The notes beneath the pieces were generated by a model that saw only the letters and a program-made list of their open reading frames with translations, did no database searches and was not told the DNA's origin. DNA of 32,000 nt, from the NCBI GenBank assembly GCA_934691725.1, contig CAKUTF010000002.1, positions 34,167 to 66,166 of the forward strand. Direction: 5' to 3'. This stretch comes from an uncultured Fibrobacter sp. Lineage in GTDB: Bacteria; Fibrobacterota; Fibrobacteria; Fibrobacterales; Fibrobacteraceae. Shown here in pieces: positions 3,497-28,755 of this stretch. The translations under genes and the position numbers were made by a program. The first letter of the stretch is position 1, and the number at the start of each line of letters is the position of its first letter.

Positions 3497-6400
3497 CTTA
3501 TGTCCCTCCGGGCATATTGTGGAACGAGTAAATCCGGACCGTCATACGCCTCGCAAGCTTCAACGGAAGGGATTTGTCCGTATATCGCGTTCCCGTCGGA
3601 ATCGACCAGGGCGATTCCGCAGACAAGCTTGTCGAACTCGCTCCAGTCGGTCAGGCGAAGACCGACATTCCCTTCCGTTACCGATTCTTTGGAATAGAGA
3701 ATATGCCTGTCGAAAAACATGTCGAGTTCCCAAACGTTCCCGCCGACATTGGTCAAGGAAGGCTTGGATTCCGGTGTGTACCAGTCTTCGGGTGGCGGCT
3801 GCAAAGTTTTCCCCACAGGGACTCTAAACCACATTTTAGCGTGGTAATTCCGAAGGTTTACACTACCCGTGTTGGAAACCGTCACCTGCGGCTTGAACAT
3901 GTTCTTTTCCCATGGGGCGGCGTCTTTCCAGGAAACCGTTCCCTTGGGCGAAGCGACAATGCCGTCATCTACGCTCTCGAACATTTTGGGTTCCGCTCCC
4001 CAGAGGATTTCGCCTCCCTTGCCATATACGACAATCTTTCGGTCTATTTTCGGCAATCCGACATTGTAATCCGCCGACCAGTCGTTTAAATGCCTGTAAT
4101 CGGACCAGTCGCCGTAATGGATTCGGATTTGCCAGCCGTCCATTCCCGGAAACACGGAACGGGCTTTCAAAACGGAATCCGAGGCGTCCAGGACGAAACG
4201 CCACTGGTCGCCACCCAGGTTTTCAAGCGTTACCGGAATCTTCGGGTAGTCGATTTCCACGACGGGTTTTCGCGACGGATCGGCTGTGAAGTAATACGCG
4301 ACCTTGAATCCTCCTATATCGTTATTCGATGAATTCGCCACAAGGATTCTCGGACGGGAAGTGTTGCTTTCTTGTTCGCCTCTCGCTTCTCGATGCATGG
4401 CGAATATCGAGGACTTGGCAAAGAACTTGTCCTTTGGCGTACTCGGAGGCGTTTGTGTCGATGGGTCTGTCGCGTTTGCTACGCCAGCGACCACTCGCGG
4501 CAGGATGTCATCATTTCCATTGCCGACTGAATAGGTGACGTTTTCCGCCAGCTTCGGCATCGGGTAGGTCTTCACATACATTTTTCCCGAATAGTTGTTG
4601 AACGAGACGGAGATGTTTTGCCCTTCGCGGGAAACCGAAGGCGTCGTCGAAATCGATGCGCCGATGACGGTGTCCAAGACGGCGTTGCCGTTTTCATCGG
4701 TATAGGTGACGAAGGAACCGGTTTTCGGCCTGTAAGTCGCCTTTAAGAAGTGAGTTCCGTCGGATACGGTCACTTCCTGCACTCCGCTTTCCGTGAATAT
4801 CGGGGCTATGTCGAAATCCCCGGCCAAGCCCACGCTTCCCTGCTCTAGGTAAACCAGTCCCGCTCCCTGTTTCTGTAAAGTCCGGTCGCAGTAGAAATCG
4901 AGTGCGCATGATATGTCCAGTCCCTGTTTTGTCGATCCGTCGTTCTTGCCTTTCACGGGCATGTGCAGGACATCTTCCCACGGGGCCAGCGCGTCGTGGA
5001 ACAAATATGGGCGAGGATCTTTAAATCCTTTTATACCGTTTGGTTCTGTTTCAGGAATAATGCCCGCATCTCGATTTATAAATTTTTGGCTGTATTCTGT
5101 TACAGCGATATCGGTTTGGGAAAACCAGTTGTCTTGAACATTAACCAGCGCGTTCCAGAGGGTATCGTTGAACTCCACGTCGCTTATTTCGGCAACGCCC
5201 TGTTTTTTCGCCATTTCCATCGCATACGTTTTAAAATAGTCCCCCGCGGCAAAACATTCCCGGCTCTCGTCGTTTTTCGCGCAGATTTCGTTTGCTTCCT
5301 CGCCCAGGGAATAAAGAAGATCGGCAAGGAACCTCTTCGTTGACGGGGAGTACAGGGGGCGCAGGGTCACGTTGGTTCCGTCCGGTCGCTTAGGGTAAGC
5401 GTTCCCTAGATTCCGTATGAATGTGCCGTTTGCGTCCAGGTGGGCTCCTGCCTTTCTGATTTTACGGGCTTCCCGCGAAACGGAAGCCATGGTTTTGATG
5501 GTGTCGAGCGTTTTTGTCACGTTGAACGGTCCCGCTCCAACGCCGTCGATATACACCTCGGGAACATATTTCCCTACATACGGTCCCTTTACTGTCAGAT
5601 ACACGTCCGTTGCCCAGTCCGTAGCCGCTCCGTATAGCCACCCCAATATGCTCGCTGCAGGAGTAAAGACCTGGAGGATTCCCAGTGGGTTGTCCAGGCC
5701 GATTTTTCCAATGCCATCGGTAAATGCGCCGGCCGCTTCGTAGGCGTAGTTGTACCAGTGCAGGTCCAGCTTGGCGGTAATCAAGTCGTGTATTTGGGGA
5801 TTTCCATTTTCCTGTGCGTCCAGGTCGTCGATAATCGGCTTTAATCCCGAAAACTTTTTCCCTATGTCTTCTGTATTTTTCACGGCAAGTTCCGAACCGA
5901 AATGGGGAGTGTCGACCGTGATGACCTTCCCGATATGGTTCGCCGCGTTTTGAGGTCCATTTAAATTATCCCCGTCAGTTTGCAAACCTCGCAGCATTTC
6001 CCTGACGACAAGCCCTCCCTGGCTATGGGCTACGATGTCCACGACCAGCTCAGGTCGATTTTTCCATCCGAGCGAGTCGTCCGAACCGTAAAAATCATCC
6101 AGGACATCAATTAGTTGTTGGTACAGCTTTCGTGATTGGGAATTCGATGCGTCATTCCCGTCCCACTCCAGTCCCGCTTCCCGCCATTTGTCTCCTTCCA
6201 TCTTGCCGGGAGCCTGGAAGAAATAGATCCCGTTACTGTTTATATGGGCTTCGGAATTGTCTAGATTCTGCATCCTGGCGATAATGTCCGGCGCAGAACC
6301 GTTTTCGTATCTTTTTACGAGTCCCTTTTGAAAGGATTCCTCCGCCTTCTTTTTGTCGCCCGAAACATCCGTTTTCGGGATGACGCCCCAGACATCGTAG

Positions 6401-7038
6401 CTGCTGTTCAGACCGTGGACAAAGATGACGGGGCGTGGCAATTTTTTACCTGGCTCGCCCTGGTAAGTCCATTCCGGGAAAGCGACCCTTTGCTTCTCCC
6501 ACGATTTAACCAAGGCTTCCCGGTCGAAAGCGCCGTCATACCCGCTGAATTCCGAACACGATTCGTCAAACCGGCCGTTATCTTTGATGCAACGAAGCGG
6601 CTTTTCCGTCCATGCGTGCGCATGTGACTTGAACTCTTCGATTTTCTCGTTGCTCGGGTTGTAGAATTCGTTTAACTTGTGCGGGTCGCTGAAAAAATAA
6701 GAATGACCGTCATACTGCAGCTTGTTCAGGCAGGTAACGCGGTACGTTATCCGGACAATGCTTACCAGACAGTAATAATGGTAAGGATCAAACAAATCGT
6801 CCTTTCCGTCCCAGTAATAGTCCGCCCTCTCGTCAACCCGGACGATTTCAAAATTCTGCACGTTTCTGCATCTGTTGTACGGTAGGTAGGTCTTGTCGTA
6901 AGGTTCCGCCCAGCGGGTATCCTCGTCTATGTCTGCCGGAAAGTCTTTGTATTTAGAAACCGCTTTGTCGTAATCCTCTTCGGCAAAAGAGGCTGAAAAC
7001 AACAATAATGTGCTAAAAATGAATGTTTTTATTCCCAT
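3493..7038 (-). CDS. secreted alpha/beta-hydrolase (lipase/esterase) with two C-terminal CBM3-like modules
   Basis: 1181 aa.
- Signal peptide: MGIKTFIFSTLLLFSASFA.
- Oxyanion-type motif VIFVHGLNSSYDVWG and nucleophile elbow VDIVAHSQGG (an AHSxG pentapeptide, as in Bacillus family I.4 lipases).
- Two C-terminal modules match my recollection of CBM3 signatures: FKVAYYFTAD ... IRIHYGDWSDYRHLNDWSADY ... IVVYGKGGEILWGAEP, and VTVSNTGSVNLRNY ... GLRLTDWSEFD ... DGNAIYGQIP. Confidence 0.85.
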   Translation of the reverse strand: MGIKTFIFSTLLLFSASFAEEDYDKAVSKYKDFPADIDEDTRWAEPYDKTYLPYNRCRNVQNFEIVRVDERADYYWDGKDDLFDPYHYYCLVSIVRITYRVTCLNKLQYDGHSYFFSDPHKLNEFYNPSNEKIEEFKSHAHAWTEKPLRCIKDNGRFDESCSEFSGYDGAFDREALVKSWEKQRVAFPEWTYQGEPGKKLPRPVIFVHGLNSSYDVWGVIPKTDVSGDKKKAEESFQKGLVKRYENGSAPDIIARMQNLDNSEAHINSNGIYFFQAPGKMEGDKWREAGLEWDGNDASNSQSRKLYQQLIDVLDDFYGSDDSLGWKNRPELVVDIVAHSQGGLVVREMLRGLQTDGDNLNGPQNAANHIGKVITVDTPHFGSELAVKNTEDIGKKFSGLKPIIDDLDAQENGNPQIHDLITAKLDLHWYNYAYEAAGAFTDGIGKIGLDNPLGILQVFTPAASILGWLYGAATDWATDVYLTVKGPYVGKYVPEVYIDGVGAGPFNVTKTLDTIKTMASVSREARKIRKAGAHLDANGTFIRNLGNAYPKRPDGTNVTLRPLYSPSTKRFLADLLYSLGEEANEICAKNDESRECFAAGDYFKTYAMEMAKKQGVAEISDVEFNDTLWNALVNVQDNWFSQTDIAVTEYSQKFINRDAGIIPETEPNGIKGFKDPRPYLFHDALAPWEDVLHMPVKGKNDGSTKQGLDISCALDFYCDRTLQKQGAGLVYLEQGSVGLAGDFDIAPIFTESGVQEVTVSDGTHFLKATYRPKTGSFVTYTDENGNAVLDTVIGASISTTPSVSREGQNISVSFNNYSGKMYVKTYPMPKLAENVTYSVGNGNDDILPRVVAGVANATDPSTQTPPSTPKDKFFAKSSIFAMHREARGEQESNTSRPRILVANSSNNDIGGFKVAYYFTADPSRKPVVEIDYPKIPVTLENLGGDQWRFVLDASDSVLKARSVFPGMDGWQIRIHYGDWSDYRHLNDWSADYNVGLPKIDRKIVVYGKGGEILWGAEPKMFESVDDGIVASPKGTVSWKDAAPWEKNMFKPQVTVSNTGSVNLRNYHAKMWFRVPVGKTLQPPPEDWYTPESKPSLTNVGGNVWELDMFFDRHILYSKESVTEGNVGLRLTDWSEFDKLVCGIALVDSDGNAIYGQIPSVEACEAYDGPDLLVPQYARRDIR

Positions 7039-7041
7039 AGA

Positions 7042-7101
7042 ATGAGAAAATAGAAATAATTTGATTGAACGATGAGAAAATAGAAATAATTTGATTGAAC
7101 G
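7042..7101. repeat. perfect tandem duplication, 2 x 30 bp
   Basis: atgagaaaatagaaataatttgattgaacg occurs at 7042-7071 and again at 7072-7101. The repeat starts 4 nt upstream of the ATG (7038, minus strand) of the hydrolase gene. Confidence 0.97.
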
Positions 7102-14591: not shown

Positions 14592-15486
14592 TTTCCTCCG
14601 TCAAGACATCTTCGAGACTAGGACGTTTATGTTCGACGCATTCCACGGGAAGTCCCGAGCGAAGGCAAAAATTCAAAAAGCGGTCACGCGCAAGAGAATC
14701 CCGGCAGACCCATTCCCGCGGAGTTGTCCCCTGCGGCTTGACGCCTTCGGGAAGATCCGACAAGGGAATATCCGCTGCGACATGGACATGGTATTCCGCA
14801 GAAGCGTTCGACGTAAAGTCGTCAACCGTTCCCTCGCGGACGATTTTTCCGCCGACAATCATCGCGACGCGGTGGCTGATCGTTTCGACGTCCGACAGCA
14901 AGTGGCTCGAATAGAAGACCGTGACGCCTTCCCGGTTGAGCGAAAGAATCGCTTCGCGGACATCTTTTCTGCCTACTGGATCGAGCCCGCTCATCGGTTC
15001 ATCCAAAATCAAAAGGTCCGGCTTCGAAAGAATCGCCTGGGCGATGCCGACCCGCTGCATCATTCCCTTCGAATAGGTACGCAGCCGCCTGTTAATCCAG
15101 TCCTTGTCCGCATTCAAAAGGGACAGCGCCCAGTCAACCCGCTTTTCCAGGAAACATCCGGAAAGTCCGCAAAGCCTGCCGTAAAAACGCATCAGTTCGC
15201 GCCCCGTCAAATAGTCGTAAAAGTAAGGCTGTTCCGGCGAATATCCTAGATGACGACGGCATTCCACATCCGAAGGATCCCGCCCGCCGACCAGGACCTT
15301 TCCCGAATCCTTGCGGAGAAGCCCCGTTAAAAGCTTAATCGTCGTCGATTTTCCCGCACCGTTCGGGCCGATAAAGCCATAGATAACGCCTTTCGGAACA
15401 TGAAACGACACGCCGGAAAGCGCCTTTTTCGGTCGCAGAAGAAAACCCGAGCGATATGTCTTCTGGAGATTTTCGACCTGGATCAT
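14572..15486 (-). CDS. ABC transporter ATP-binding protein
   Basis: 304 aa. Walker A GPNGAGKSTT, signature-like YSKGMMQRVGIAQA, Walker B LLILDEP, H-loop SSHLL. Confidence 0.93.
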   Translation of the reverse strand: MIQVENLQKTYRSGFLLRPKKALSGVSFHVPKGVIYGFIGPNGAGKSTTIKLLTGLLRKDSGKVLVGGRDPSDVECRRHLGYSPEQPYFYDYLTGRELMRFYGRLCGLSGCFLEKRVDWALSLLNADKDWINRRLRTYSKGMMQRVGIAQAILSKPDLLILDEPMSGLDPVGRKDVREAILSLNREGVTVFYSSHLLSDVETISHRVAMIVGGKIVREGTVDDFTSNASAEYHVHVAADIPLSDLPEGVKPQGTTPREWVCRDSLARDRFLNFCLRSGLPVECVEHKRPSLEDVLTEEIARAEH

Positions 15487-15719
15487 TTTTCGTCCTCTTC
15501 ACCCTTCGCAATTTTCTTCAGCGTCTTGCGGTTGAAGACATAATAGAGTACGGCCCCGATCAAATAGACGAGCAGCCCCGCATAGAAGAAATAGTTGAGA
15601 GAGGATACGGGAAATCCCGGAAAAATCCGGTTGAGCAGCGGATGCCCAAAAAAGTACATCAAAACGAGAACGACGCCTAAGATTCGAAGCGCATACGTCA
15701 TTCCAACTTTCTTGTCCAT
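15483..15719 (-). CDS. small membrane protein (two TM helices), first gene of the operon
   Basis: 78 aa with two clear hydrophobic helices and a charged tail KKIAKGEEDEK. Its stop overlaps the ABC ATPase start as ATGA. It has no similarity I can recognise. Confidence 0.6.
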   Translation of the reverse strand: MDKKVGMTYALRILGVVLVLMYFFGHPLLNRIFPGFPVSSLNYFFYAGLLVYLIGAVLYYVFNRKTLKKIAKGEEDEK

Positions 15720-15813
15720 AAAAATTCTCCAAGAAGAAACCTTTCGGAGAAAAAATACACATAAAAAAAGAAAAGCGTTAGGCTACCTGGAAAATTCGCC
15801 CGATATTTGTTAT

Positions 15814-16080
15814 TAGTTGAGAGGATGGAATCAGTGGTCAATTAGCAATGAGTAATTAGGAGTGAGGAATTGGCTGTTTAGCGAGCCGGTGTCAGAGGTC
15901 AGCGACTAGCGAACAGTTAGGGAACAGGGAGTGGGAATTAGATTGCTGAGCGAACTGTTGCTAGAGCTTAGAGCTGAGATTTTAGAGCTTAGCAAATAGT
16001 TGATAGTGGACAGGAATCAGGACTCAGTGGTCAGAGCCTAGTTGATAGTGGATAGTTGAAAGAAAATAGGACTCAAAAAA
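15814..16080 (+). repeat. heptanucleotide NAG-N4 periodic array, sense on plus strand
   Basis: There are 19 in-phase 7-mers from 15948 to 16080, and 17 of them begin NAG (for example tagagct tagagct gagattt tagagct tagcaaa tagttga tagtgga caggaat caggact cagtggt cagagcc tagttga tagtgga tagttga). Earlier blocks use the same unit with 1-4 nt phase slips. By hand count there are 17 TAG triplets. The plus strand is strongly C-poor. No ORF is present. Confidence 0.9.
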
Positions 16081-16201
16081 GGCTCGCTCCGCGACCAATT
16101 CCTCATTCCTCATTTTCTTACCCGTCCGCGAAATATTCCCTCATCCCTAGTCCCCAAGAGCTTAAACGTCCACGGTTCTAAGCTCTCAGTTCTATCGACT
16201 A
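16081..16201 (-). repeat. heptanucleotide NAG-N4 array plus conserved core, sense on minus strand
   Basis: The minus strand, read from the TAG stop of the GGGPS-like gene, gives: tagtcga tagaact gagagct tagaacc gtggacg tttaagc tcttggg ... tagggat gagggaa ... gaggaat gaggaat tggtcgc g gagcgag cc. The plus strand here is G-poor, so composition flips at 16080/16081. Confidence 0.8.
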
Positions 16202-16957
16202 AGCTCTGACATGGATGGCATTCGCAAATTCGCGGAGAAGCCCCGGATCCTTCACTTTTTCCCAAAGCGTTCCTGTCACAATAATCTGCGCACCGGCGGA
16301 AACACGCACGGAAGCCGCTTCGGGTTCCCGGATTCCTCCCCCGGTGATAATCGTCATCTGTGTTGCCTTTCGCGTATAGGCGATATGCTCTACCGGAACC
16401 GGCGTCTCGGCACCGGAGCCTGCTTCAAGATAGACGTAACGCATTCCCATCAACTCCGCGGCGACAGAATGCACCATCGAGAGCTTCGGCTTGTTCGACG
16501 GAACGGGCATCGTGTTGCTGATATATTCCACGGCTGTGCGTTTTCCGCTGCTGATAAGCTCGTATGCCGTCGGAATCGCTTCGATGCCTAGAGACCTCAC
16601 CAGAACGCCTCCGCGGACCTGTTCGTCAATCAGATAGTTCGGGTTGCGGCCCGTCACAAGCGTCGTAAAAAGAATCGCGTCAAAGCCGGGAACCACCTGG
16701 GACGCTCCGCCCGGAAAGAGGATAACCGGAAGCGGGACCTCCTTTTTCAGTGCCAAAACCTGGGACGGAAGCTTGAAATTTCCCATGAACGATCCACCGA
16801 CGAGAAGCACATCCGCTCCGTTTTCGGCAGCAAGCGTTCCCGCTTTGAGGAGGGACGTGTCGTCCGATGTGTCGGGGTCGAGCAGCACGGCGAACAACGC
16901 GCCGCGCCTTTCGATAGCCTCGTTCAAGGCGGTTTCGGTCTTACCTATTTTAAGCAT
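16199..16957 (-). CDS. geranylgeranylglyceryl phosphate synthase family protein (GGGPS/PcrB family prenyltransferase)
   Basis: 252 aa, counting from the internal ATG at 16957 (MLKIGKTE...). Family blocks present: LLDPD, GADVLLVGGS, PVILFPGG, DAILFTTLVTGRNPNYLI, YVYLEAGSGAETPVP, IITGGGIR, IIVTGT. The 73-codon upstream extension in the ORF track is Arg/Ser/Cys-rich and overlaps the preceding gene, so I reject it. Confidence 0.87.
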   Translation of the reverse strand: MLKIGKTETALNEAIERRGALFAVLLDPDTSDDTSLLKAGTLAAENGADVLLVGGSFMGNFKLPSQVLALKKEVPLPVILFPGGASQVVPGFDAILFTTLVTGRNPNYLIDEQVRGGVLVRSLGIEAIPTAYELISSGKRTAVEYISNTMPVPSNKPKLSMVHSVAAELMGMRYVYLEAGSGAETPVPVEHIAYTRKATQMTIITGGGIREPEAASVRVSAGAQIIVTGTLWEKVKDPGLLREFANAIHVRA

Positions 16958-16985: not shown

Positions 16986-19900
16986 TTACTTGCTCTTTTT
17001 ACGGCGAACGCCCCATTTGTCGCGCATCTCTTCCTGCACTTTCTTCTGCTTGTAGCGCACGACCAGTTTGAACTCGACGATATACACGCCGGAACCGACC
17101 AGGCGCCCCGAATGGTCCTTGTAGTTCCAGTTGACGAAGACTTTCTTATCCGTCGTGAGGCAGTTTCTTCCCGCACCGAATGCCGGGCTGTTGCACGGAA
17201 TGTTGAATGTCGTATCCGTCACGTATTGTCCTAGGTTGTCAAAGTAGCTCACGCTGAAATTCACGAAGACGTCACCCGGGTCGATGCTATCGAGGACAGC
17301 CGCATCGTAATTTCCGTCCGCATCGAGTTTCGCACCGTCAATGAGCTGGGGAACAAAGCGTTCGCCGAGAGAAATCAGATGCCCGAGCGTTCCTTCGTCG
17401 CGAAGGTCCGAAGTCCGCGTCTGGTTCGGCACGTAGGAAATGGAAACCGAGTTCAGCGTACTGGTGATGTATTTTTCCGGATCATAGGATCCCATCTTGA
17501 CGGATTCCACCAGCTTTCCGAGAAGCCCGCCGATAACCACGGGAGATGCGTTTTCAACCGTCTTGTTGCCGTAGATATCCGCAATGGAAGATTTTTCTCC
17601 GCGAACGACCAGGAGAGAATCCCCGGGCACGATGCCGTCCGTCGATTCGCGCAGCACAAGGCGCACCGACTTGCCGTCTGCCGCCCAGAGCATCCGGGAA
17701 GGCCGAATATCAATCGTATCGTTTCCATGGATGTAGGCGAAGAAGTCGTTTCCGACAAGCGAAGAATAATCGACCGGTTCAGAGAACGAAACCGTGAGCG
17801 TATCGCGGGAATCGCCGTAGCGGAGCGAAGCCGCCGTGACAACCGGAGCCATCTTGTCCGCAATTGCGATTGTCTGCTGCGCAACAAAGGTGTTCCCGAA
17901 AATATCGTAGTAGGTGTAGAGCGTTGCCGCAGGAACATTCGAACCGATGCTAGTCAAGCCCGGAGCGACATTGACATTGCTTCGGACCACCCATCCGACG
18001 CTCTTCCCGTCCGCGCCCAGAATCAGGTCGCGCGGCTGCGCCTGGAGTTCGATCAAAAGCCCACGGGAACTATACCACGGGAACGAGAAGTAGAAGTTTT
18101 CAACGTCTTCCGCCGTCACCTTCGAAGAGAACCTAACCGCAACGGAATCGAGCTTGCCGTCACCGTCCGTATCGTAATACTCGACCATTTCCGCTGCCGG
18201 ATAGCGATCCGTCACTTTTACAGGGACCTGGCGTTCGTATTCCGAAGTCGCGATGTAGGAAAGATTGTGGAACGAAGCTCCCGGAGCGAGCGTCACAAAG
18301 TCCGTCCGTCCGTTGAGACCTAGCGAATCGCCAACCAGAATGATAAGATTTTTCGTCGGCAGGTAAATCTTGACCGCATCCAGGTCAAAGCCCATCGCAT
18401 TCAGCCACACGACCATCTCGGGACTGTTCAGGTCCGCAGGGATGACATCGATATTAAACTCGACGAAAAGCGAATCCCTGCCCGTCTTGTTACGAATCGC
18501 ATAGGCCTGCTTGATGACATGTGAGCCGAGGAGGAGGAGGTTCGTGCTGCGGTTATAGTTCGCACCGGTCTCTTCGCTCGTATAGGTCACGATAACCCGA
18601 GCGTTGTCCGGGAAGCGGTCCCCGGAAAGCCCGAGTTCCGCGGCGCTCGCATAGATTCTCGACCCGGATACGGTCAGCGCACCGGAAAGCGGAAGCGTGT
18701 CACCGTTTACGACCAGGGCAAGTCCCGTCGCCGAAAGCCCCGCGGGAACCGTATCGGAGAGAATCACTTCCAGGGAATCCAAAAGACCGTCATCGTCCGC
18801 ATCCTGGATGTAAGCGACTTCCGCCTTGGGAATCGGGTCGTAGAAATTGATGCCGTCAAAGATGATCAGATGACCGTCCTTGTCGGTAATGTAGATGCTT
18901 CCCACGAGAACTGTCGTGTCTGCGGAAACCCAGAACGACTGGTCCTTCCCGGTAACGCCGATGGAAATGTTCGACGCCGGCGCATCCGTATTGGAAGGAT
19001 CCTTGAAAATCAGCCCCGCGGAACCGGAGATGTAGAGCGAATCCGCATCGCCGAAGTAATCGCGAATCTTATCCGCATCGAGCTTGATTTCGATAACATC
19101 GCCGACACTGACCGATTCGCGTCCGCTAGCAGGAATCGAATCGGAGCCGTAGCTAGGCAGATCCGTCGATTGGGAATTGCCTCCAGTCACATAGGTGTTC
19201 CCGTTGATGATAACCGTTCCCGGAACAGAGGAATCCGCAGGAATCGGGATAAGCTTGGAACCGCCGATGATAAGGGTATCTCCCTTGTCGCGCTTGTCGT
19301 TTGTCGGGTAGAGGTCCGAACCGTCCTGGTTTTCCGAACCTTCTTCGCCAAATCCTTCATAGACCGTGGTGTCCGTAACCCAAGGCGGAATCCATTCGTC
19401 TCCGCCACCCTTTACCGAGCTGGAGGAATTGTTACCTGTGCCGCTCGAAGAGCCCGGATTTTCCCCGCCAGCGGAACTCGAAGAATTGCCGCTACCACCG
19501 CCATTCGAAGAACTCGAACCGGCGTCTCCCGAACCGGAAGAGTTGCCCGCACCGCTCGAAGAGCCCGGATTTTCCCCGCCAGCGGAACTCGAAGAATTGC
19601 CGCTACCGCCGCCATTCGAAGAACTCGAATTCTTGCCGTCATTGCTGGAGGAGCTTAGGTCGGAATTCCCCGAACTTGAAGATTTAGACCCCGAGCCGCC
19701 GATTGAACTGGAAGATTTACCCGAACTCGAAGATTCATGGAAAACGTTTGCGCTGGACGAGCTTCTGGAACTCGAAGAAACCAGCGTCCCCGGATTCGTC
19801 GTCGCCGAGTGGCGGTTGGAACCCGCCCCGGCAATCGGAGCGAGGTCATCCAGATAGTTATCAATCCACTGAACATGCAGGAGGATGTTGTTATCGATCA

Positions 19901-20984
19901 GCTTGTTCGGGTTCGATGTGTAATCGAGGAAAATCAGATGCCCGGAATTCGAAGCGACAAAGATATGCCCCTTGTGGTCGGCTGTCCCCTGGTCCAAAAG
20001 CCAGCGGATTTCATTGGTTCCGCTAATCGCATAGCCCTTGGTTTCGGCCCAGTTCGCCGAAAAGCTTCCTGTCATCTTGTCATCGTAAAACAGATACTTT
20101 CGCAAATCGACGTCCGCAATCACCTTGCGCGTTTTCGGGTCTATCTGCACAATGTGGGAATCGCCGAACAGGAGAATCGTATTCGAATATTCGTCAAAGC
20201 TCGCTCCGTGCGCGCCTTTCAGCGAATCGATCAGCGTCTTGGTCTTTAATCCGGTGATGTACTTAGCCGGGCATGGCCTCGTATTGACACTGCAGGTCGT
20301 ATCCGTGATGATTCCAAACTGGGCATTGCTGTTCGAATTGCGGGAAATCGTTCCCAAGTTGCTCGAACGCGTATAGAACGCCTGTCCGGAATTGTCCCAG
20401 AGGAGCGTCGTGATGTTAGACACGGAGCCATAGACATTTACCCGGCGAATCTTGCTCAGGCGATCCGATGTCGTCGAATCCGTTTCATATAAAATCAGGT
20501 TTCCCGGAATGCCCGCCGACCAGAGAACCGTATTGTCCGGATTCATCATCAGGTGGAAAGTCGAAGCACCGACTCCCGAAGAAACGGTTTTTGCGATACA
20601 CTTCGACGAAAGCGTATCCGTCGCATTCATCTTGACTTTGTAGATTTCATTGTAGTCCTGCCCGGCGACAAGAAGATCGCCGTCCGGATGGTGCACGATG
20701 CCGTCCGCACCGGGAGTTCTACAAAGCAGTCTCTTGTTGGAAAGCTTGAGGTAGCCGTTACCGTCATAGTAATAGTCGAGAGCCTTGGCGCTCTGCTGCT
20801 GAGAATAACGCGTGTAATAGACGGTTTCCTTAGTGCTCGCCGAAGGATACAGGTCGCCTACCTGCTGGATCCAGACGCCTGTCGCAGGGTTGTAGGGGGT
20901 ATTGATAGCCGGGTCCGCATAGACAAACGCGGAAAGGAACGGGACTAGTCCCAAAGCGCAAAATACTTGTTTAATCTTTTTCAT
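16986..20984 (-). CDS. giant secreted protein: N-terminal propeller-like region, Ser/Gly-rich linker, Ig-like/Ca-binding modules, conserved basic C-terminal domain
   Basis: 1332 aa.
- Signal peptide MKKIKQVFCALGLVPFLSAFVYA.
- SD GGAGGAGG 8-16 nt upstream of the ATG.
- About 130 aa of S/G/N-rich linker.
- DxDxDG-type loops: DADDDGLLDSLEV and DTDGDGKLDSVAV.
- C-terminus VNWNYKDHSGRLVGSGVYIVEFKL ... KWGVRRKKSK, paralogous to the C-terminus of the 892-aa neighbour. Confidence 0.9.
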   Translation of the reverse strand: MKKIKQVFCALGLVPFLSAFVYADPAINTPYNPATGVWIQQVGDLYPSASTKETVYYTRYSQQQSAKALDYYYDGNGYLKLSNKRLLCRTPGADGIVHHPDGDLLVAGQDYNEIYKVKMNATDTLSSKCIAKTVSSGVGASTFHLMMNPDNTVLWSAGIPGNLILYETDSTTSDRLSKIRRVNVYGSVSNITTLLWDNSGQAFYTRSSNLGTISRNSNSNAQFGIITDTTCSVNTRPCPAKYITGLKTKTLIDSLKGAHGASFDEYSNTILLFGDSHIVQIDPKTRKVIADVDLRKYLFYDDKMTGSFSANWAETKGYAISGTNEIRWLLDQGTADHKGHIFVASNSGHLIFLDYTSNPNKLIDNNILLHVQWIDNYLDDLAPIAGAGSNRHSATTNPGTLVSSSSRSSSSANVFHESSSSGKSSSSIGGSGSKSSSSGNSDLSSSSNDGKNSSSSNGGGSGNSSSSAGGENPGSSSGAGNSSGSGDAGSSSSNGGGSGNSSSSAGGENPGSSSGTGNNSSSSVKGGGDEWIPPWVTDTTVYEGFGEEGSENQDGSDLYPTNDKRDKGDTLIIGGSKLIPIPADSSVPGTVIINGNTYVTGGNSQSTDLPSYGSDSIPASGRESVSVGDVIEIKLDADKIRDYFGDADSLYISGSAGLIFKDPSNTDAPASNISIGVTGKDQSFWVSADTTVLVGSIYITDKDGHLIIFDGINFYDPIPKAEVAYIQDADDDGLLDSLEVILSDTVPAGLSATGLALVVNGDTLPLSGALTVSGSRIYASAAELGLSGDRFPDNARVIVTYTSEETGANYNRSTNLLLLGSHVIKQAYAIRNKTGRDSLFVEFNIDVIPADLNSPEMVVWLNAMGFDLDAVKIYLPTKNLIILVGDSLGLNGRTDFVTLAPGASFHNLSYIATSEYERQVPVKVTDRYPAAEMVEYYDTDGDGKLDSVAVRFSSKVTAEDVENFYFSFPWYSSRGLLIELQAQPRDLILGADGKSVGWVVRSNVNVAPGLTSIGSNVPAATLYTYYDIFGNTFVAQQTIAIADKMAPVVTAASLRYGDSRDTLTVSFSEPVDYSSLVGNDFFAYIHGNDTIDIRPSRMLWAADGKSVRLVLRESTDGIVPGDSLLVVRGEKSSIADIYGNKTVENASPVVIGGLLGKLVESVKMGSYDPEKYITSTLNSVSISYVPNQTRTSDLRDEGTLGHLISLGERFVPQLIDGAKLDADGNYDAAVLDSIDPGDVFVNFSVSYFDNLGQYVTDTTFNIPCNSPAFGAGRNCLTTDKKVFVNWNYKDHSGRLVGSGVYIVEFKLVVRYKQKKVQEEMRDKWGVRRKKSK
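19441..19629. repeat. in-frame tandem repeat (period 111 bp) inside the Ser/Gly linker
   Basis: 78 nt at 19441-19518 are repeated at 19552-19629 with a single mismatch (accaccg vs accgccg). They encode SSNGGGSGNSSSSAGGENPGSSSG twice. Confidence 0.92.
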
Positions 20985-21002: not shown

Positions 21003-23681
21003 TTAGTAGTCAAGCGCAAGGTGAGCCTTGCCGCCGTGAACGCCCCATTTGAAGATTTTATCATAGGTATAGGAATGTTTCTGCCCATAGACCTTCAGGT
21101 GGAACTGGACAAGATAGGCGCCTACGCCGACCTTTCGTCCCGAAGCGGAACGCAGATTCCAGCGCAGGTAAAGCCTTTTGGCATTGTCAAAGCAGTTTCC
21201 GGCAAAGTCGGGATCGTCGCACCGAATCTTCCCGTGGCCGCCGGCGACAAAATTTCCCAGATTCGTATAAACTTCCATCGACCAGTTCAAACCGACCTTT
21301 TCCAAGTCCAGGCTTTCGCCCGTCGAATCGTCAAAGATTGTCGCAAAGGCGATATCGAGCATCACGCCAAGCGATCCTTCCATCGCCTTTCCGGTCGAAG
21401 TTCCCTTCGGAAGCAGACGCTCGGTAAAGGCAGGACCGTCCGTATCAAGTCCCGCACGATCGACTGCGGCAATCGAAGCGGTTTCCATCACGACTCGCGG
21501 ATCTCCTTCAACGCCGACCAGACGGGAATTGTTCCCGACAAAATTTCCCCGAACGTCCGAAACCGCCGAAGCGACGATGAACAGGGAATCGTTCGGGTTG
21601 GCACGGGACAAAAGCTTTTCTCCCGACGCGACAGAAAGGCGCACTTCCGTACGGTTCTCGTTCCAGTCCGCTTGGGAAAAGTCGAAGAAAACGGTGTCGC
21701 CGCCGATGACAAACCCGAGGAAATTCGCATTGGAAATTTCGCTCACGTCGATTGCCTCGGAAAATTTCACGGTCAAGCAGTCCGCTTTGCGGCTGTTCCG
21801 CGATTCGGGCGAAAGGAACGTGGAACGGATTACCGGAGGAATCCGATCGTTCATGTCGAGATACTGGAACGCGGCAACGGTATCCCCGTTTACGACGGAA
21901 ACGTTTTCAAGGGCCGCATAACCGTAACTTCTGGATTCATCGATGGATGTAAGGCCTTTTTGGACTTTTGCCTGTTCCGATTCGGAAAGCTTGTAGGAAA
22001 CCATCTTGCCGTCCTTGGAAATCACCAAATCCTTAGACGGAGGCGAAATAATCAGCTCGTTTCCGGCGGAATCCTTCCAGAAGAACTGGAGCCGCATATT
22101 TTCAAGGTCTTCGGCGGTAATCGGATTTTCAAATCCCACCGTCACCGAATCCATCCGCCCGTCCGCATCGGAATCGAAAAATCCGTTGTTCTCGTTCGAA
22201 AGATAAACCCGTCCCGCATTCGTCACCTTCGCAGGCAAGTTGAACGTCGCAACGTTTCCGTCGGCGGTCACAAGCCCGAGATCACCTAGCCCCGAAACGA
22301 CGGAAAGGGAATCCCCGACTTTCACCGTCCCCGAAACAGTCGTCACCGTCCAGCGTTTGCCGTTTTTCGAAAGCGCTTCGATCCGAACCTTGTCGCCATT
22401 CGAAAGCCGCAGCACGGAACCAGCCGAGAATGCGGTATCCAACGCCTTGTTGAAATCGAGAACAAGCGTATCGCGCGCCCCGGAAACGCCTTCGATAAGC
22501 GTCGCCTTGAGGATTACGGGACCGATTCTGTCTTCCAGGACGGTCGAAAGTCCCGCCGACGTTCCGCTCAGCCTCGACTTGACAAAGACTTCCAGTTCAC
22601 CGTTCCCGAGCGTTTCGGAAAGCGATGTTTTCACATCGAGCAGTTCCATCCGTCCGCCGTTCAGGCTGCGCTTGTATTCGCCAGAAAACTCCTTTCGGGA
22701 AGCGCCGTTCGGGAAGATGTAAAAGATGCTGTCCCACGAAACGGAATCCGTCTTGCCCGAAAAATACGCGATGACGCTGTCGCCCTTGCCGTCGCCGTCC
22801 GCATCATAGATAAAGGCGCTGTCGAGAGTCGGCAGATAAGGATTTTCAAACGCGAACTTTCCCGGGAAAACCTCTTCCACAAAGAAAGTCGAATCCGAAG
22901 GATTGACAAGTCCCTTCGAAACAAAGCTCGCCCCGGAAACCGCCCCCGCCGAGCGAACCGAAAAATGCCCGACGCCTTTTTCTAAGATGACCCTATCCGT
23001 CGAATCGCCGGCAAGCGTCGTGAACATCAAACTTTCCGCACCGCGAATCGGTTCCAGATAAAAGGCGCGCTTGTTAATCGTCGTATCCGTCTTTCCGGCT
23101 GAAGGCCCCACGGGTATCACCGCGCGAACAGTCACCGTCATCGACGAATCCACCGGGAGCGAAAGCCTAGTCGTCGAATCGATGACAACCGTATCGCCCT
23201 GGGCATTCACATAGGAATATTCTAGACGCGGGACATAGAACGTATAATAGCGGAACACGACAGGCGCAGCACTTTCGCTCACCTGCATCCCGAGCGGAAG
23301 ATTTTTTACCGGAAAACGCGAAGAGACCTTGGCATAGAAAAATCCCCGGACAGAATCCGAAGTGACCTTTGCTGTCGGATGCGAAAGCTCCGTCGAAGAG
23401 CAGGCAGTCGTTCCCGAGGCATAATCCTTTTCGCACGGATTCAAAGTCAAGGAATCGTTCGCCGCATAAACCAGGAAATCCGCCGAACGGATTGCCTTCG
23501 AAGTGTCCGCGATATTTTCGGATTCGGGAACCGTCCACAGATAGGCGACAAGCGACGTATAAATCGAATAGTAGCCGCACTTCCCCGCTTCGGGGCACGT
23601 ATTCCCAAAAGCCATCGCCACTAGAAACAGTGCGATACCGAGAACCTGTGCAGGCAACAATTTAAGCGTCCGATAGAACAT
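21003..23681 (-). CDS. large secreted protein, paralog of the 1332-aa neighbour (Ig-like/Ca-binding modules and the same C-terminal domain)
   Basis: 892 aa. Signal peptide. DxDxDG-type loops DADGDGKGDSVIAYFSG and DSDADGRMDSVTVGFEN. C-terminus LRWNLRSASGRKVGVGAYLVQFHL ... KWGVHGG. The 440-aa plus-strand ORF opposite it is an Arg-rich shadow frame. Confidence 0.9.
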   Translation of the reverse strand: MFYRTLKLLPAQVLGIALFLVAMAFGNTCPEAGKCGYYSIYTSLVAYLWTVPESENIADTSKAIRSADFLVYAANDSLTLNPCEKDYASGTTACSSTELSHPTAKVTSDSVRGFFYAKVSSRFPVKNLPLGMQVSESAAPVVFRYYTFYVPRLEYSYVNAQGDTVVIDSTTRLSLPVDSSMTVTVRAVIPVGPSAGKTDTTINKRAFYLEPIRGAESLMFTTLAGDSTDRVILEKGVGHFSVRSAGAVSGASFVSKGLVNPSDSTFFVEEVFPGKFAFENPYLPTLDSAFIYDADGDGKGDSVIAYFSGKTDSVSWDSIFYIFPNGASRKEFSGEYKRSLNGGRMELLDVKTSLSETLGNGELEVFVKSRLSGTSAGLSTVLEDRIGPVILKATLIEGVSGARDTLVLDFNKALDTAFSAGSVLRLSNGDKVRIEALSKNGKRWTVTTVSGTVKVGDSLSVVSGLGDLGLVTADGNVATFNLPAKVTNAGRVYLSNENNGFFDSDADGRMDSVTVGFENPITAEDLENMRLQFFWKDSAGNELIISPPSKDLVISKDGKMVSYKLSESEQAKVQKGLTSIDESRSYGYAALENVSVVNGDTVAAFQYLDMNDRIPPVIRSTFLSPESRNSRKADCLTVKFSEAIDVSEISNANFLGFVIGGDTVFFDFSQADWNENRTEVRLSVASGEKLLSRANPNDSLFIVASAVSDVRGNFVGNNSRLVGVEGDPRVVMETASIAAVDRAGLDTDGPAFTERLLPKGTSTGKAMEGSLGVMLDIAFATIFDDSTGESLDLEKVGLNWSMEVYTNLGNFVAGGHGKIRCDDPDFAGNCFDNAKRLYLRWNLRSASGRKVGVGAYLVQFHLKVYGQKHSYTYDKIFKWGVHGGKAHLALDY

Positions 23682-26262: not shown

Positions 26263-27846
26263 ATGACGATGATCGGAAAGGTAAATGACGATTTTTTCAC
26301 CAAGGCGATTCTCGCAAAGACCGGATGCGCAAACGCCAAAGTCGTAATCGGTCCGTCGATGGGCGTGGATTCCGCAATCCTAAAGGTTCCCGGAGGCTTC
26401 ATGGCTATCGCCGAAGACCCGATTTTTCCGTCCGTCCGCATGACACCGAAGGATTTTGCCTACGTCACGGTCCACATCGGCGCAAGCGACGTCGCCGTCA
26501 TGGGCATCAAGCCGGAGTTCATGACTTATTCGCTCCTGCTCCCGCCGGACACGAAACAGGATTACATTGCAAGGCTCATCGCAGAAATCAGCGCCGAGGC
26601 GAAACGCCAAGGGATCGCTATCGTCGGAGGACACACGGGCTACTACGGAGCGGTCACCTGCCCGACCATCGGAGGAATCTCGGTCTGGGGCTACGGCAAG
26701 AAATACGTTTCGCCCAAAGGCGCCAAGGCTGGCGACAACCTGGTGATTACCAAGGGAGTAGCCATCGAGGCGGCAGCCCTCCTGGGTTTTGAACTGGGCG
26801 AAGCGCTCAAGGGAAAGCTCGACAGCAAGGATATCCGGCGCGCCGCCAAAAGGATGAAGGAAATTTCCGTCGTCAAGGATGCGGAAATCGCTTCGCGCTT
26901 TCGGGGCGTCCATGCGATGCACGATGCGACGGAAGGCGGAACCAAGCGCGGCGTCTGGGAAGTCGCCGAGGCTTCCGGAAAAGGCGTCCTGCTCGATACG
27001 GATTCATACAAGATTCCCCAGGACGTCGAAAACATCTGCCGGATTTTCGGACTCGACCCGTGGGAAATCATCAGCGAGGGAACGCTCGTCATCGCCGTTT
27101 CCCCAAAAGACACAAAACCGCTTCAAAAGGCGCTGGCCGCCGAGGGAATCGAGAGCGCGGTCATCGGAAAATTTACCGACAGAAAGTCCGGGCGGAAAAT
27201 GCTTCGAAACGGGAAGAAAGAAAACTTCCTGCCGCCGGCCAAGGATTTTTTCTGGGACGTTTTCTTCAACGCGGCGAACATACTCTCGCAGGGAAATGTC
27301 GAAGGCTCGCTTTCCGAAAGCGACAGGCTCTGTCGCGACCTCAAGGCTTGCGTCGATAGATTGAAAGCGGCGAACATCTACAAGATGCTCCCGGAGATAG
27401 GGATGAACATCGGCTACACGGAATCGGGAACGTCTAGGGAAGATGTGTGCGCTGTTCCCGGGCGAATTTTTCGCGTCGAAAACGAAACCTATTCCGTCCG
27501 AGAACCCAAGATGGGTATCAGCGTCTATATGGCGGACACGCTTCTTTCTATCCGGAAGAAATTTCCCGAAGCGAAATGCGTCGCCGATTTTCGCAACAAC
27601 CCGAAAATCCTTTCCGCCTGCAAAAAGGCGAAATTCCGAATCGTAGAAATGCCCACGCCCAAGGATTACTGGCAACGCGGAAACGATTACGACCGGGATT
27701 TAGAAAGCGTCATCGCCAAGGCTCCCGCCTTGCCGGATATCATCACGATTCCGGACCGGATCAATCTCGAAAAGCTGATTCTCGTCGTCGGGAAATCCCT
27801 AGAAGACTTCGAGCGGAAAGTCCTGAAAATCAACAGCGCACTGTAA
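26263..27846 (+). CDS. AIR-synthase-related (PurM/ThiL/HypE superfamily) protein fused to a ThiN-like thiamine-phosphate synthase domain
   Basis: 527 aa. The N-terminal ~330 aa show PurM-superfamily blocks (GVDSAILKV, HIGASDVAVMGIKPEFMTYSLLLP, GIAIVGGHTG). The C-terminal ~190 aa match my recollection of the ThiN domain (LPEIGMNIGY, DVCAVPGRI, ADFRNNP, PDIITIPDR ... EKLILVVGKSLEDF). The start may be the third codon, ATG 26269, which is better spaced from AGGAG at 26258-26262. Confidence 0.85.
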   Translation: MTMIGKVNDDFFTKAILAKTGCANAKVVIGPSMGVDSAILKVPGGFMAIAEDPIFPSVRMTPKDFAYVTVHIGASDVAVMGIKPEFMTYSLLLPPDTKQDYIARLIAEISAEAKRQGIAIVGGHTGYYGAVTCPTIGGISVWGYGKKYVSPKGAKAGDNLVITKGVAIEAAALLGFELGEALKGKLDSKDIRRAAKRMKEISVVKDAEIASRFRGVHAMHDATEGGTKRGVWEVAEASGKGVLLDTDSYKIPQDVENICRIFGLDPWEIISEGTLVIAVSPKDTKPLQKALAAEGIESAVIGKFTDRKSGRKMLRNGKKENFLPPAKDFFWDVFFNAANILSQGNVEGSLSESDRLCRDLKACVDRLKAANIYKMLPEIGMNIGYTESGTSREDVCAVPGRIFRVENETYSVREPKMGISVYMADTLLSIRKKFPEAKCVADFRNNPKILSACKKAKFRIVEMPTPKDYWQRGNDYDRDLESVIAKAPALPDIITIPDRINLEKLILVVGKSLEDFERKVLKINSAL

Positions 27847-27994
27847 TTTTCCCCTGCGGATTCAGGCGTTCCGAAAGGCTGAAGGTCAAAGCTTTCAGAA
27901 CTTGTTTTCATGTATGTCGGAGCATAGCTCGACAAGCTCGCTAGCCTGTCATTATCGGACGAGATTCCCTTGTCAAGCAAGGGAATGACATCAT

Positions 27995-28078
27995 CCCGCT
28001 AAACGCTTCCCAAAAGTTTAAATGTCCACGGCTCTGACCACTGCTCACTGACCACTAGCCACTGAACCTAGACGTCTG
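27995..28078 (-). repeat. second heptad element with the conserved 28-nt core
   Basis: The minus strand reads: cagacgt c taggtt cagtggc tagtggt cagtgag cagtggt cagagcc gtggaca tttaaac ttttggg aagcgtt tagcggg. Five YAG heptads are in exact phase (28030-28064). The core at 28009-28036 matches 16153-16180 at 23 of 28 positions. Confidence 0.8.
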
Positions 28079-28101: not shown

Positions 28102-28755
28102 TCAGCCTTCCCTTTTAAACTTCGCATGTCCCGATTCAAAGGCGCGCCGAAGATTTTCCGTAGCGAGCTTCGGGTCTTTCGCCGACATGATTTCCGAAAC
28201 CACGGCAAGCCCGTCAACACCGGAAGCAGCGACATCTTCGGCATTCGACAGATGGATTCCCCCGATAGCGACCAGCGGATGCCGCGAAAGGGACGCCGCC
28301 TTCCGAAGCCCTTCCGGTCCTAGTCCCTCTGCGGCATCGAGCTTTGTCGTCGTCGCAAAAGCCTGGAACGCGACATAATCTACATCGTAATCGTTCGCCG
28401 CGACAAGTTCCTCGTAGTTATCCGTCGAAAGCCCGATGATTTTATCCTTTCCGAGCAAGCGTCTCGCAACCGGATACGGCAAATCGCTCTGCCCGATGTG
28501 AAGACCGTCCGCATCGACAGCGAGCGCGATGTCTAGCCTGTCGTTGATGATAAGCGGCACGCCCGTTCCCGACAGCGTTTTTTTTAACTTCAAGGCAAGC
28601 TCGTAAAATTCGAGCGAAGAACACTCCTTTTCGCGGAGCTGGACAATGCCCACGCCACCGCGGAGCGATTCTTCCACGACCCTTTCAATCGGACGACCGA
28701 GCGAAAGTCCACGATCCGTTACCAGATAAACGTTAAGGTATTCCTTTGCGTCCAT
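28102..28755 (-). CDS. thiE: thiamine-phosphate synthase
   Basis: 217 aa. ThiE blocks: VYLVTD, IVQLREKE, LIINDRLDIALAVDADGLHIGQSDLP, PLVAIGGI, GVDGLAVVSEI. SD AAGGAG sits 5 nt upstream of the ATG. Confidence 0.92.
   Translation of the reverse strand: MDAKEYLNVYLVTDRGLSLGRPIERVVEESLRGGVGIVQLREKECSSLEFYELALKLKKTLSGTGVPLIINDRLDIALAVDADGLHIGQSDLPYPVARRLLGKDKIIGLSTDNYEELVAANDYDVDYVAFQAFATTTKLDAAEGLGPEGLRKAASLSRHPLVAIGGIHLSNAEDVAASGVDGLAVVSEIMSAKDPKLATENLRRAFESGHAKFKREG

Follow-up and report, generated by a model that had tools for sequence, protein, structure and literature searches.

Heptanucleotide repeat arrays between operons and in other intergenic DNA of Fibrobacter

Cyanobacteria and a small number of other bacteria have been recognised since 1990 as carriers of heptanucleotide repeats, and in some bacterial genomes arrays of such repeats rank with the most abundant of those that lack an explanation. 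To our knowledge, neither a function nor a reader has been shown for them. The units of short tandemly repeated repetitive sequences (STRR) 1 to 3 of heterocystous cyanobacteria read CCCCAGT, TTGGTCA and CAACAGT. Here, arrays of this period were studied in Fibrobacterota, a phylum of major fibre degraders of the rumen and of the hunter-gatherer gut. The DNA analysed was a stretch of 32,000 nucleotides from an uncultured Fibrobacter sp. (GenBank assembly GCA_934691725.1, contig CAKUTF010000002.1, positions 34,167 to 66,166), called the window below. The element in question is a cluster of heptamer arrays at window positions 15814-16201, located between a PcrB-family gene and a gene encoding a 78-aa protein. 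The cluster encodes nothing and corresponds to no known RNA family, and heptamer arrays are a normal and abundant feature of Fibrobacter intergenic DNA. The spacer is probably filled by degenerate heptanucleotide repeats of the STRR or long simple sequence repeat (SSR) kind, forming a hypervariable cluster that would have arisen by slippage in 7-nt steps together with block copying and would be tolerated between operons with at most a generic effect. The known range of heptanucleotide arrays is extended to Fibrobacterota, where they were apparently unreported; a literature search retrieved no paper on heptamer or intergenic repeats of Fibrobacter, which is not proof of absence.

STRR of cyanobacteria are 7-bp repeats located between genes, often able to form hairpins (as between hupS and hupL) and of unknown function, for which a role in transcript stability or translational coupling was proposed (PMC2670836). 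As cited in PMC4679880 and PMC4692102, the survey of Mrazek (2007) recognised heptanucleotides as the most abundant class of long SSR in most surveyed genomes and proposed slippage as their origin. Arrays of GGGAATC in Xanthomonas and of GGGGAYT in Nostoc differ in length among close relatives, and some of them form inverted pairs (PMC4692102). TAACTGA arrays and mixed heptamer arrays were described by MacGregor (2015) in Beggiatoaceae, cyanobacteria and Bacteroidetes; the mixed arrays of Microcystis, Gramella and Aequorivita occupy long spacers whose counterparts in the closest relatives are short and lack repeats, and they differ between strains by insertions or deletions (indels) in 7-nt steps (PMC4679880). 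Heptanucleotide tandem repeats being known from these sources (PMC2670836, PMC4692102, PMC4679880), the statement of an earlier note on this DNA that no such element had been described could not be maintained.

Heptamer units of the PcrB spacer

Periodicity was expressed as base identity at a given lag and compared with 1000 shuffles preserving dinucleotides. Across 15814-16201, lag-7 identity was 0.465, as against 0.253±0.022 in shuffles (z 9.7), and 0/1000 shuffles reached it. Lags 14 and 21 were also raised, while lags 3, 5, 6, 8 and 9 stayed at or below background. Taken separately, the main array (15948-16080) had a lag-7 z of 6.5 and the minus-strand arm (16081-16201) one of 3.5. Among lags 4 to 12, only lag 7 attained an identity of 0.5 in any 63-nt segment of the 32 kb, and Tandem Repeats Finder also listed period-7 rows for the window.

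The main array (15948-16080, plus strand) is composed of 19 gap-free, in-phase heptamers, 17 of which start with NAG. Position 2 was A in 18/19 units and position 3 was G in 18/19; a pyrimidine occupied position 1 in 16/19 and A or T occupied position 7 in 17/19, while positions 4 to 6 were near random, which gives the consensus YAGNNNW. Neighbouring units were barely more alike than random pairs (P about 0.1), and a simple, recently expanded microsatellite was discarded on this ground. Further blocks of main-array units, with phase slips of 1-4 nt, were read on the same strand at 15814-15947. The plus strand of 15814-16080 displayed 17 TAG triplets, compared with 6.8±2.4 in shuffles (maximum 15), and 10 of the 17 fell in a single phase from 15962 onward. 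On the minus strand, which is the sense strand of both flanking operons, the main array reads CTN (CUN in transcripts) and is C-rich and G-poor; its NAG triplets are found only on the antisense strand.

At 16081 the composition flips, from G 0.32 and C 0.12 in 15814-16080 to G 0.14 and C 0.36 in 16081-16201. The minus strand here carries a short arm of degenerate G-rich units (GGGGACT AGGGATG AGGGAAT ... AATGAGG AATGAGG AATTGGT; 16081-16153), delimited by composition and lag-7 z, and a run of five in-phase NAG heptamers (CAGAGCT TAGTCGA TAGAACT GAGAGCT TAGAACC; 16174-16208), found by regular-expression scan. Heptamer units recur between the two converging arms. A G-quadruplex role was rejected, as G runs of at least three were confined to one short stretch (16128-16150, minus strand). 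A CRISPR array was likewise rejected: the units are 7 nt long and contiguous, whereas CRISPR repeats measure 24-48 nt and alternate with unique spacers of about the same length.

The earlier note had described 15814-16201 as converging, NAG-anchored arms of period 7 between two minus-strand operons. This description was accurate: the lag-7 signal exceeded all shuffles, and its 17 of 19 in-phase NAG units from 15948, its 17 TAG triplets and its flip at 16081 were recovered on recounting. The minus-strand run had been placed exactly at the stop codon of the PcrB-family gene, and it does overlap this codon, the TAG of its second unit (TAGTCGA) being the stop itself (16199-16201), but it starts 7 nt inside the gene.

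Arrays across Fibrobacter and their turnover

Relatives were gathered by scanning species-representative genomes with the PcrB protein, which returned 80 loci, essentially all from Fibrobacter. The protein was 80-97% identical to those of the Fibrobacter loci and gene order was conserved, the best matches (91-97%) being syntenic. Together with the window, these loci formed a genus sample of 927 kb, including an intergenic subset of 85 kb. In the whole sample, 33 arrays were detected at lag 7, compared with 0-3 at lags that are not multiples of three (4, 5, 8, 10, 11 and 13), and 26 of the 33 were intergenic, though only ~8-14% of this DNA is. The intergenic subset displayed 45 arrays over 2.7 kb at lag 7, as against 1-11 arrays for lags 5-13. 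A background of 482 kb from unrelated metagenome contigs gave five arrays at lag 7 versus 12-30 at lags 4, 6, 8, 9, 10 and 12. These contigs came from a metagenome scan for more arrays of the window's species with the 14-mer CAGTGGTCAGAGCC; the matches were essentially due to chance and served only as a control.

Period 7 is the dominant tandem period of the Fibrobacter loci, and its arrays are almost all intergenic and made of many different units. Even the orthologous spacers between PcrB and the next gene contained other units in other Fibrobacter species, for instance AATGTGG with CACACTC, CCCTAAC, or TGAGTTG with AACTGAT. A one-off repeat, which the earlier note had considered in the event that relatives held no further copies, was set aside in view of this genus-wide family (45 arrays in 85 kb of intergenic DNA). 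GAG and TAG were the commonest periodic triplets of the genus, GAG being the commoner anchor, while some arrays had no AG at all (AATGTGG, ATCAATT, AAAAATG). Arrays occurred in both orientations on the sense strand, and single-arm arrays faced both ways relative to genes. Close to gene ends (within 60 nt), arrays preceding a start were C-rich in the sense direction in 15 cases and G-rich in nine, and those following a stop were G-rich in nine cases and C-rich in four; this polarity is a trend only, because gene calls were crude and some loci orthologous.

Four Fibrobacter species displayed an array of CTCGTCT type directly before the start ATGAC(C/T)TGG and at the same position (L025 7812-7873, L026 7800-7882, L057 8440-8509 and L070 10819-10871), the only array seen to be conserved across species. 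Units complementary to this type (GACGAAA/GACGAGA) were encountered at other loci (L021, L060, L064-L066 and L076).

Turnover was apparent between strains. An identical 78-aa protein was found in five other metagenome assemblies, and the spacer had the same architecture in all of them, apart from a few substitutions and from indels of 7, 14 and 81 nt; the 7- and 14-nt indels were located in the short arm 16081-16153. Since the same architecture was displayed by six independent assemblies, an assembly artefact was rejected. At a second array of the window (28030-28064, see below), the alleles of six assemblies differed in length by two units (14 nt) and by seven units (49 nt), and larger indels of 81, 38 and 118 nt were also present among strains. 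The 49-nt insert, found in L209, has units in common with the PcrB spacer (GGGACTAGGGATGAG), and blocks therefore move between arrays.

Between species the differences were larger. The sister species L002 and L003 (94-96% PcrB identity) displayed a spacer of ~120 nt with five units only, corresponding to a slightly diverged 16174-16208 block. No arrays were present in the PcrB spacer of L004-L007, which consisted of unrelated sequence, and the spacer of L008-L011 was reduced to 40 nt. Among strains and species, the arrays behave as slippage-prone simple-sequence DNA with block copying does, and not as a conserved functional sequence. The array grows and shrinks in 7-nt steps, as expected from slipped-strand mispairing, and blocks of units are copied not only within it but also to arrays at other loci and to the opposite strand. 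This copying is the reason why the two converging arms have a vocabulary in common.

Given their variability between strains in 7-nt steps, the arrays could serve as typing markers. They are also likely causes of contig breaks and of mis-binning in metagenome assemblies. As a separate observation, the Fibrobacter-type syntenic locus, with 91-97% protein identity, was also encountered on contigs L001, L004-L007 and L012, filed under unrelated bins (Oscillospiraceae, Alistipes, Sodaliphilus, Methanomethylophilaceae, Senegalimassilia and Eggerthellaceae); these odd names are probably due to bin contamination in the set of metagenome-assembled genomes of one study.

Spacer boundaries, folding and the second array

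The upstream flank of the spacer is the PcrB-family gene (GGGPS/HepGPS-like; 16199-16957, minus strand), identified from ORFs and a domain scan. Two open reading frames (ORFs) of 1332 aa (16986-20984, minus strand) and 892 aa (21003-23681, minus strand) lie upstream of it in the same operon, and neither displayed a Pfam domain at E<=0.001. The downstream flank is the 78-aa ORF (15483-15719, minus strand) with an ABC-transporter operon, also on the minus strand, leaving a spacer of 15720-16198. The first part of it, 15720-15813, is the non-repetitive leader of the 78-aa gene (~95 nt), with a Shine-Dalgarno (SD)-like GGAGA 7 nt before the ATG, and was retained in relatives without arrays (comparison with L002-L007 and L081-L085). 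The leader thus forms the downstream boundary of the repeat cluster and lies outside the cluster proper. Because it is non-repetitive and conserved where repeats are missing, the repeats occupy the space from the stop codon to the leader of the next operon.

This position may explain why the arrays are tolerated, as they lie between the PcrB operon's stop codon and the conserved leader of the next operon; spacers of 120 nt or even 40 nt suffice in sister species. Any effect would probably be generic rather than sequence-specific. Transcripts coming from either side would first meet a purine-rich, stop-rich arm and then a C-rich arm able to pair with it in part, the outcome being a structured, untranslatable spacer that may help to uncouple the two operons.

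The earlier note had seen neither an ORF, nor CRISPR-like spacing, nor a canonical terminator in the spacer, and this was borne out by the unit size, by the ORF list, which contained no ORF within the array region, and by a consensus scan, which detected neither a canonical sigma-70 promoter nor a hairpin-plus-T terminator in 15720-16198. Both tRNA genes of the window are flanked by textbook sigma-70 promoters and hairpin-plus-T terminators. A bulged 6-bp stem followed by T6 (in RNA, GGUCGC-GGA-GCGAGCC then U6; 16074-16097, minus strand), recognised from sequence and fold, is located exactly at the flip and was missed by the consensus scan. It is weak, and may be considered a candidate intrinsic terminator of the PcrB operon. 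Both this hairpin and the second array were unmentioned in the earlier note. A further, local hairpin of heptamer units (GAGAGCUUAGAAC / GUUUAAGCUCU) was predicted by RNA folding at 16154-16189 (minus strand); its loop contains the motif CCGTGGAC, seen again beside the second array.

As a whole, the spacer folded slightly better than its shuffles (z -1.9 to -2.1). Two segments within 15814-15947, of 34 nt and 30 nt, match the complement of the short arm at 79% and 73%, respectively, and these best blocks follow each other in the order A B A' B'; they cannot both pair, because the order is crossed and not nested. A clean long hairpin between the arms of the window was accordingly discarded. In other species, arm pairs often had much more stable folds than shuffled sequences (z -3 to -5 in L079, L065, L063, L060, L022, L030 and L054), while those of L021, L027 and L037 did not. 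Rfam returned no match at E<=1 in 15650-16300; a known RNA family in either spacer was rejected, the only match, to the Fluoride riboswitch, being at chance level (E 0.59). At gathering score, the whole window yielded two tRNAs and nothing else. A Rho loading site (rut) on the C-rich arm was also rejected, since such arms directly precede the starts of apparently co-transcribed genes as well.

These folds bear on the idea that selection maintains the arrays as boundaries between operons. In this model, the proximal NAG arm would supply stops in all frames and the two arms would pair into a structure protecting or terminating 3' ends, or into an RNase III site, as functional analogues of repetitive extragenic palindromes (REP), of bacterial interspersed mosaic elements (BIME) or of the hupS-hupL STRR hairpins. 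The exact fit of the cluster into the space that separates a stop codon from the leader of the following operon is in keeping with it, as are the lack of a canonical terminator in a window where the tRNA genes possess both signals, the strong folds of many Fibrobacter arm pairs, a G-rich-first order that holds from both directions, and the roles in transcript stability or translational coupling proposed for STRR (PMC2670836). However, the fold of the window itself is marginal, its crossed segments cannot all pair, and close relatives lack the arrays. The all-frame stop, already suggested in the earlier note, fits the arm next to the stop codon but cannot apply generally, since the genus uses GAG as an anchor more often than TAG. 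Selection as a boundary was judged rather unlikely, and so, jointly with it, was the proposal that the flip hairpin with its U6, weak and bulged as it is, acts as a weak terminator.

The second array (CAGTGGC TAGTGGT CAGTGAG CAGTGGT CAGAGCC) is located at 28030-28064 (minus strand), where it follows the stop codon of a thiE-like gene at a distance of 38 nt, and has the 14-mer CAGTGGTCAGAGCC in common with the main array. It adjoins a dispersed element of ~110 nt (~27912-28035, minus strand), delimited by alignment, which contains internal hairpins and folds at z -3.1 versus shuffles. This element, in the order GTGGACATTTAAAC..AGCGGGA..TGTCATTCCC..GATAATGACAGGCTAGCGAGCTTGTCGAGCTA, directly follows NAG arrays and lies on the downstream side of thiE in the window and of PcrB in the relative L001 (3830-3990). 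A partial copy was recognised at window positions 16158-16185, the motif AGARCCGTGGACRTTTAARCTYTTGGG being common to 16158-16185 and 28013-28035. No Rfam family matched the element, which could be a MITE-like repeat (miniature inverted-repeat transposable element) or a small RNA. Small G+C-rich hairpins (e.g. GTCATGCCCGGCTTGACCGGGCATC) were also observed at the junction of G-rich and C-rich arms in several species (L025 6935-6965; L027 6930-6985), where they resemble short dispersed palindromes.

Two further observations concern other parts of the window. Near the second array, 26263-27846 (plus strand) encodes ThiL-like AIR-synthase domains fused to a ThiN thiamine-phosphate synthase domain and is convergent with a canonical ThiE (28102-28755, minus strand); the two types of thiamine-phosphate synthase are therefore encoded next to each other in this organism. 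A perfect 30-nt tandem duplication (ATGAGAAAATAGAAATAATTTGATTGAACG x2) occupies 7042-7101 in an A+T-rich region, just upstream of a 1181-aa gene (3493-7038, minus strand), and is overlapped by several weak promoter-like matches.

Unit anchor, arm order and comparison with known systems

Several observations weigh against a purely slippage-derived cluster. The near-invariant AG at positions 2-3 and the order of a G-rich arm followed by a C-rich arm are real, and simple slippage does not account for them. Neutral decay of a microsatellite should affect all seven positions equally, while A and G were each kept in 18/19 units. AG was also the commonest lag-7 dinucleotide on the G-rich strand of the genus sample, recurring at least four times in 27 of 51 arrays. 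Recent expansion unit by unit is not the whole story, because adjacent units are only slightly more alike (P about 0.1). Where spacers contained arms of opposite polarity, these were ordered G-rich then C-rich eight times and the reverse once. The arm pairs of other species that fold at z -3 to -5 hint at selection for structure. Apart from these points, what was found in the window is ordinary non-coding repeat DNA and not a new regulatory element. Any explanation will have to satisfy two constraints, namely a near-invariant AG at fixed positions with free spacers, and a G-rich arm placed before a C-rich one.

The first constraint recalls the idea, put forward in the earlier note, of a long track wrapped by a protein. 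The NAG-N4 units would form a track on RNA or single-stranded DNA for an oligomeric protein reading A and G every 7 nt, with a HutP-like geometry or a 7-nt footprint of cold-shock type. HutP contacts only the A and G of XAG motifs, three of which, separated by 4-nt spacers, are bound per face (PMC2425495), and the spacing of the window's units is identical, as the earlier note had pointed out. The 18/19 conservation of A and of G next to free spacers and the dominance of AG as periodic anchor in the genus argue in the same direction, and S1, Csp or CsrA-type readers were proposed by MacGregor for TAACTGA heptamers (PMC4679880). The idea is nevertheless weakened, because the NAG of the main array lies only on the strand antisense to both flanking operons, because arrays (single-arm ones included) occur in both orientations in the genus, because the 20 window ORFs scanned for domains included no candidate reader (HutP, TRAP, cold-shock or ribbon-helix-helix (RHH)-type) and because array length varies between strains. 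Relatives without arrays and arrays without AG also speak against it, as does the organisation of HutP sites, in which two groups of three motifs flank a terminator within a 5' leader, and such a track appears improbable.

A small probability, still well on the side of doubt, was given to the more general proposal that (Y/K)AG-N4 heptads are a real code, read every 7 nt by a putative oligomeric nucleic-acid-binding protein of Fibrobacter, HutP-like or of cold-shock type. If this were true, the head-to-head layout (5' NAG arm and 3' CTN arm, on both strands) would let any transcript or unwound strand that enters an operon boundary, from whichever side, present its NAG track first, and the CAGT-rich heptamers of cyanobacteria, a puzzle since 1990, might follow the same logic.

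The second constraint, the G-to-C order, holds for both strands because the order is its own reverse complement. The count of 8:1 includes orthologous loci and corresponds to ~7 independent cases, so that the bias across the genus is suggestive and not proven. It could be produced if arrays were scars of DNA-end processing, G-rich heptamers being added reiteratively to 3' ends at a break or insertion and the ends then joined, which would always place a G-rich arm before a C-rich one. We know of no enzyme for such an addition. The unrelated small hairpins or dispersed elements found at junctions would agree with this origin, and so would the arrays that flank an inserted cassette in L022 and the rearrangement role suggested for long heptamer arrays in Gramella and Microcystis (PMC4679880). 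The units within one arm are, however, too varied for a fixed template, the order count is reduced by orthology, and scars of this kind were considered very improbable.

The cassette of L022 (6780-8110) comprises a 72-aa ORF and a GNAT acetyltransferase, an arrangement resembling toxin-antitoxin pairs, and is flanked by two near-identical copies of an array segment (GAGGG.CTAGAGGCTAGGATCTAGGGAGAAATATCACGG...). It suggests that arrays are sites of insertion or recombination, and arrays seem to mark spots where spacers accept inserted DNA.

Among protein sites, that of HutP shares with the Fibrobacter units the NAG triplets and the spacers of exactly 4 nt. It differs in having its motifs in two groups of three, on either side of a terminator stem within a 5' leader, as compared with at least 19 contiguous units in an inter-operon spacer, which moreover are antisense to both operons in the main array and variable in copy number between strains. 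A HutP site was rejected, the spacing being the only feature in common while layout and transcribed strand differ. TRAP reads 11 (G/U)AG motifs (PMC3064811). A site of this kind, with about 11 (G/U)AG and spacers of 2-3 nt, was rejected because the spacers here are 4 nt long and no signal above background was seen at lags 5 and 6.

For the RHH protein omega (ParB of pSM19035), the sites are runs of 7-10 contiguous 7-bp heptads, direct and inverted, each of which is bound by one dimer (PMC9499535). In a model based on this example, the arrays would be double-stranded DNA sites for a protein binding contiguous heptads, acting in nucleoid organisation or repression. The gap-free 7-bp units (19 in the main array) and their two orientations indeed reproduce the omega architecture. 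Omega arrays are nevertheless composed of conserved WATCACW heptads at plasmid promoters with the genes of the system adjacent, whereas the cluster, for which the consensus is YAGNNNW, consists of more than 50 degenerate, chromosomal units, is at least five times longer and strain-variable, and has no RHH or ParA gene nearby. An omega-type operator or parS was rejected on consensus and gene context, and double-stranded heptad sites in general were held to be highly unlikely.

REP elements are copies of a ~35-nt consensus mobilised by RAYT transposase. Like REP/BIME of enterobacteria, the Fibrobacter repeats are dispersed, imperfectly palindromic, strain-variable and intergenic, at operon ends or between cistrons; they differ in being tandem 7-nt arrays. 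The arrays of MacGregor are closer, being mixed heptamers in long spacers that are short in the closest relatives, with 7-nt indels between strains. They abut start codons, an arrangement described for Beggiatoaceae and shared by TAACTGA-type arrays of Fibrobacter in L063, L066 and L076 (AACTGAT AACTGAA AACTGAC, at 6830-6889), in contrast to the window, in which the units are YAGNNNW and not TAACTGA and a conserved SD-bearing leader of 95 nt separates the array from the next start. Xanthomonas and Nostoc arrays are near-perfect repetitions of a single G-rich unit with G-quadruplex potential, whereas many unit types and only local G runs (16128-16150) were found here.

With STRR, the Fibrobacter arrays have in common tandem 7-nt units, an intergenic position at many loci and hairpin potential, and their CAGT/TGGTCA-like words presumably recall STRR consensus units. 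Their phylum is nonetheless Fibrobacterota, and their units are not those of STRR1-3 and are more heterogeneous, only AG (with Y before it and W at position 7) being constant among the many variants of YAGNNNW; STRR in the strict sense were rejected for these reasons. As in the long SSR of Mrazek (2007), period 7 is over-represented and intergenic, length and sequence vary at the same gene pair, and inverted pairs occur occasionally. The 7-nt units, arranged head to tail at many unrelated intergenic loci and polymorphic in length between strains by multiples of the unit, are those of heptanucleotide long SSR. The arrays of Fibrobacter were therefore filed under this broader heptanucleotide class, and not under STRR proper, because host and unit sequences differ.

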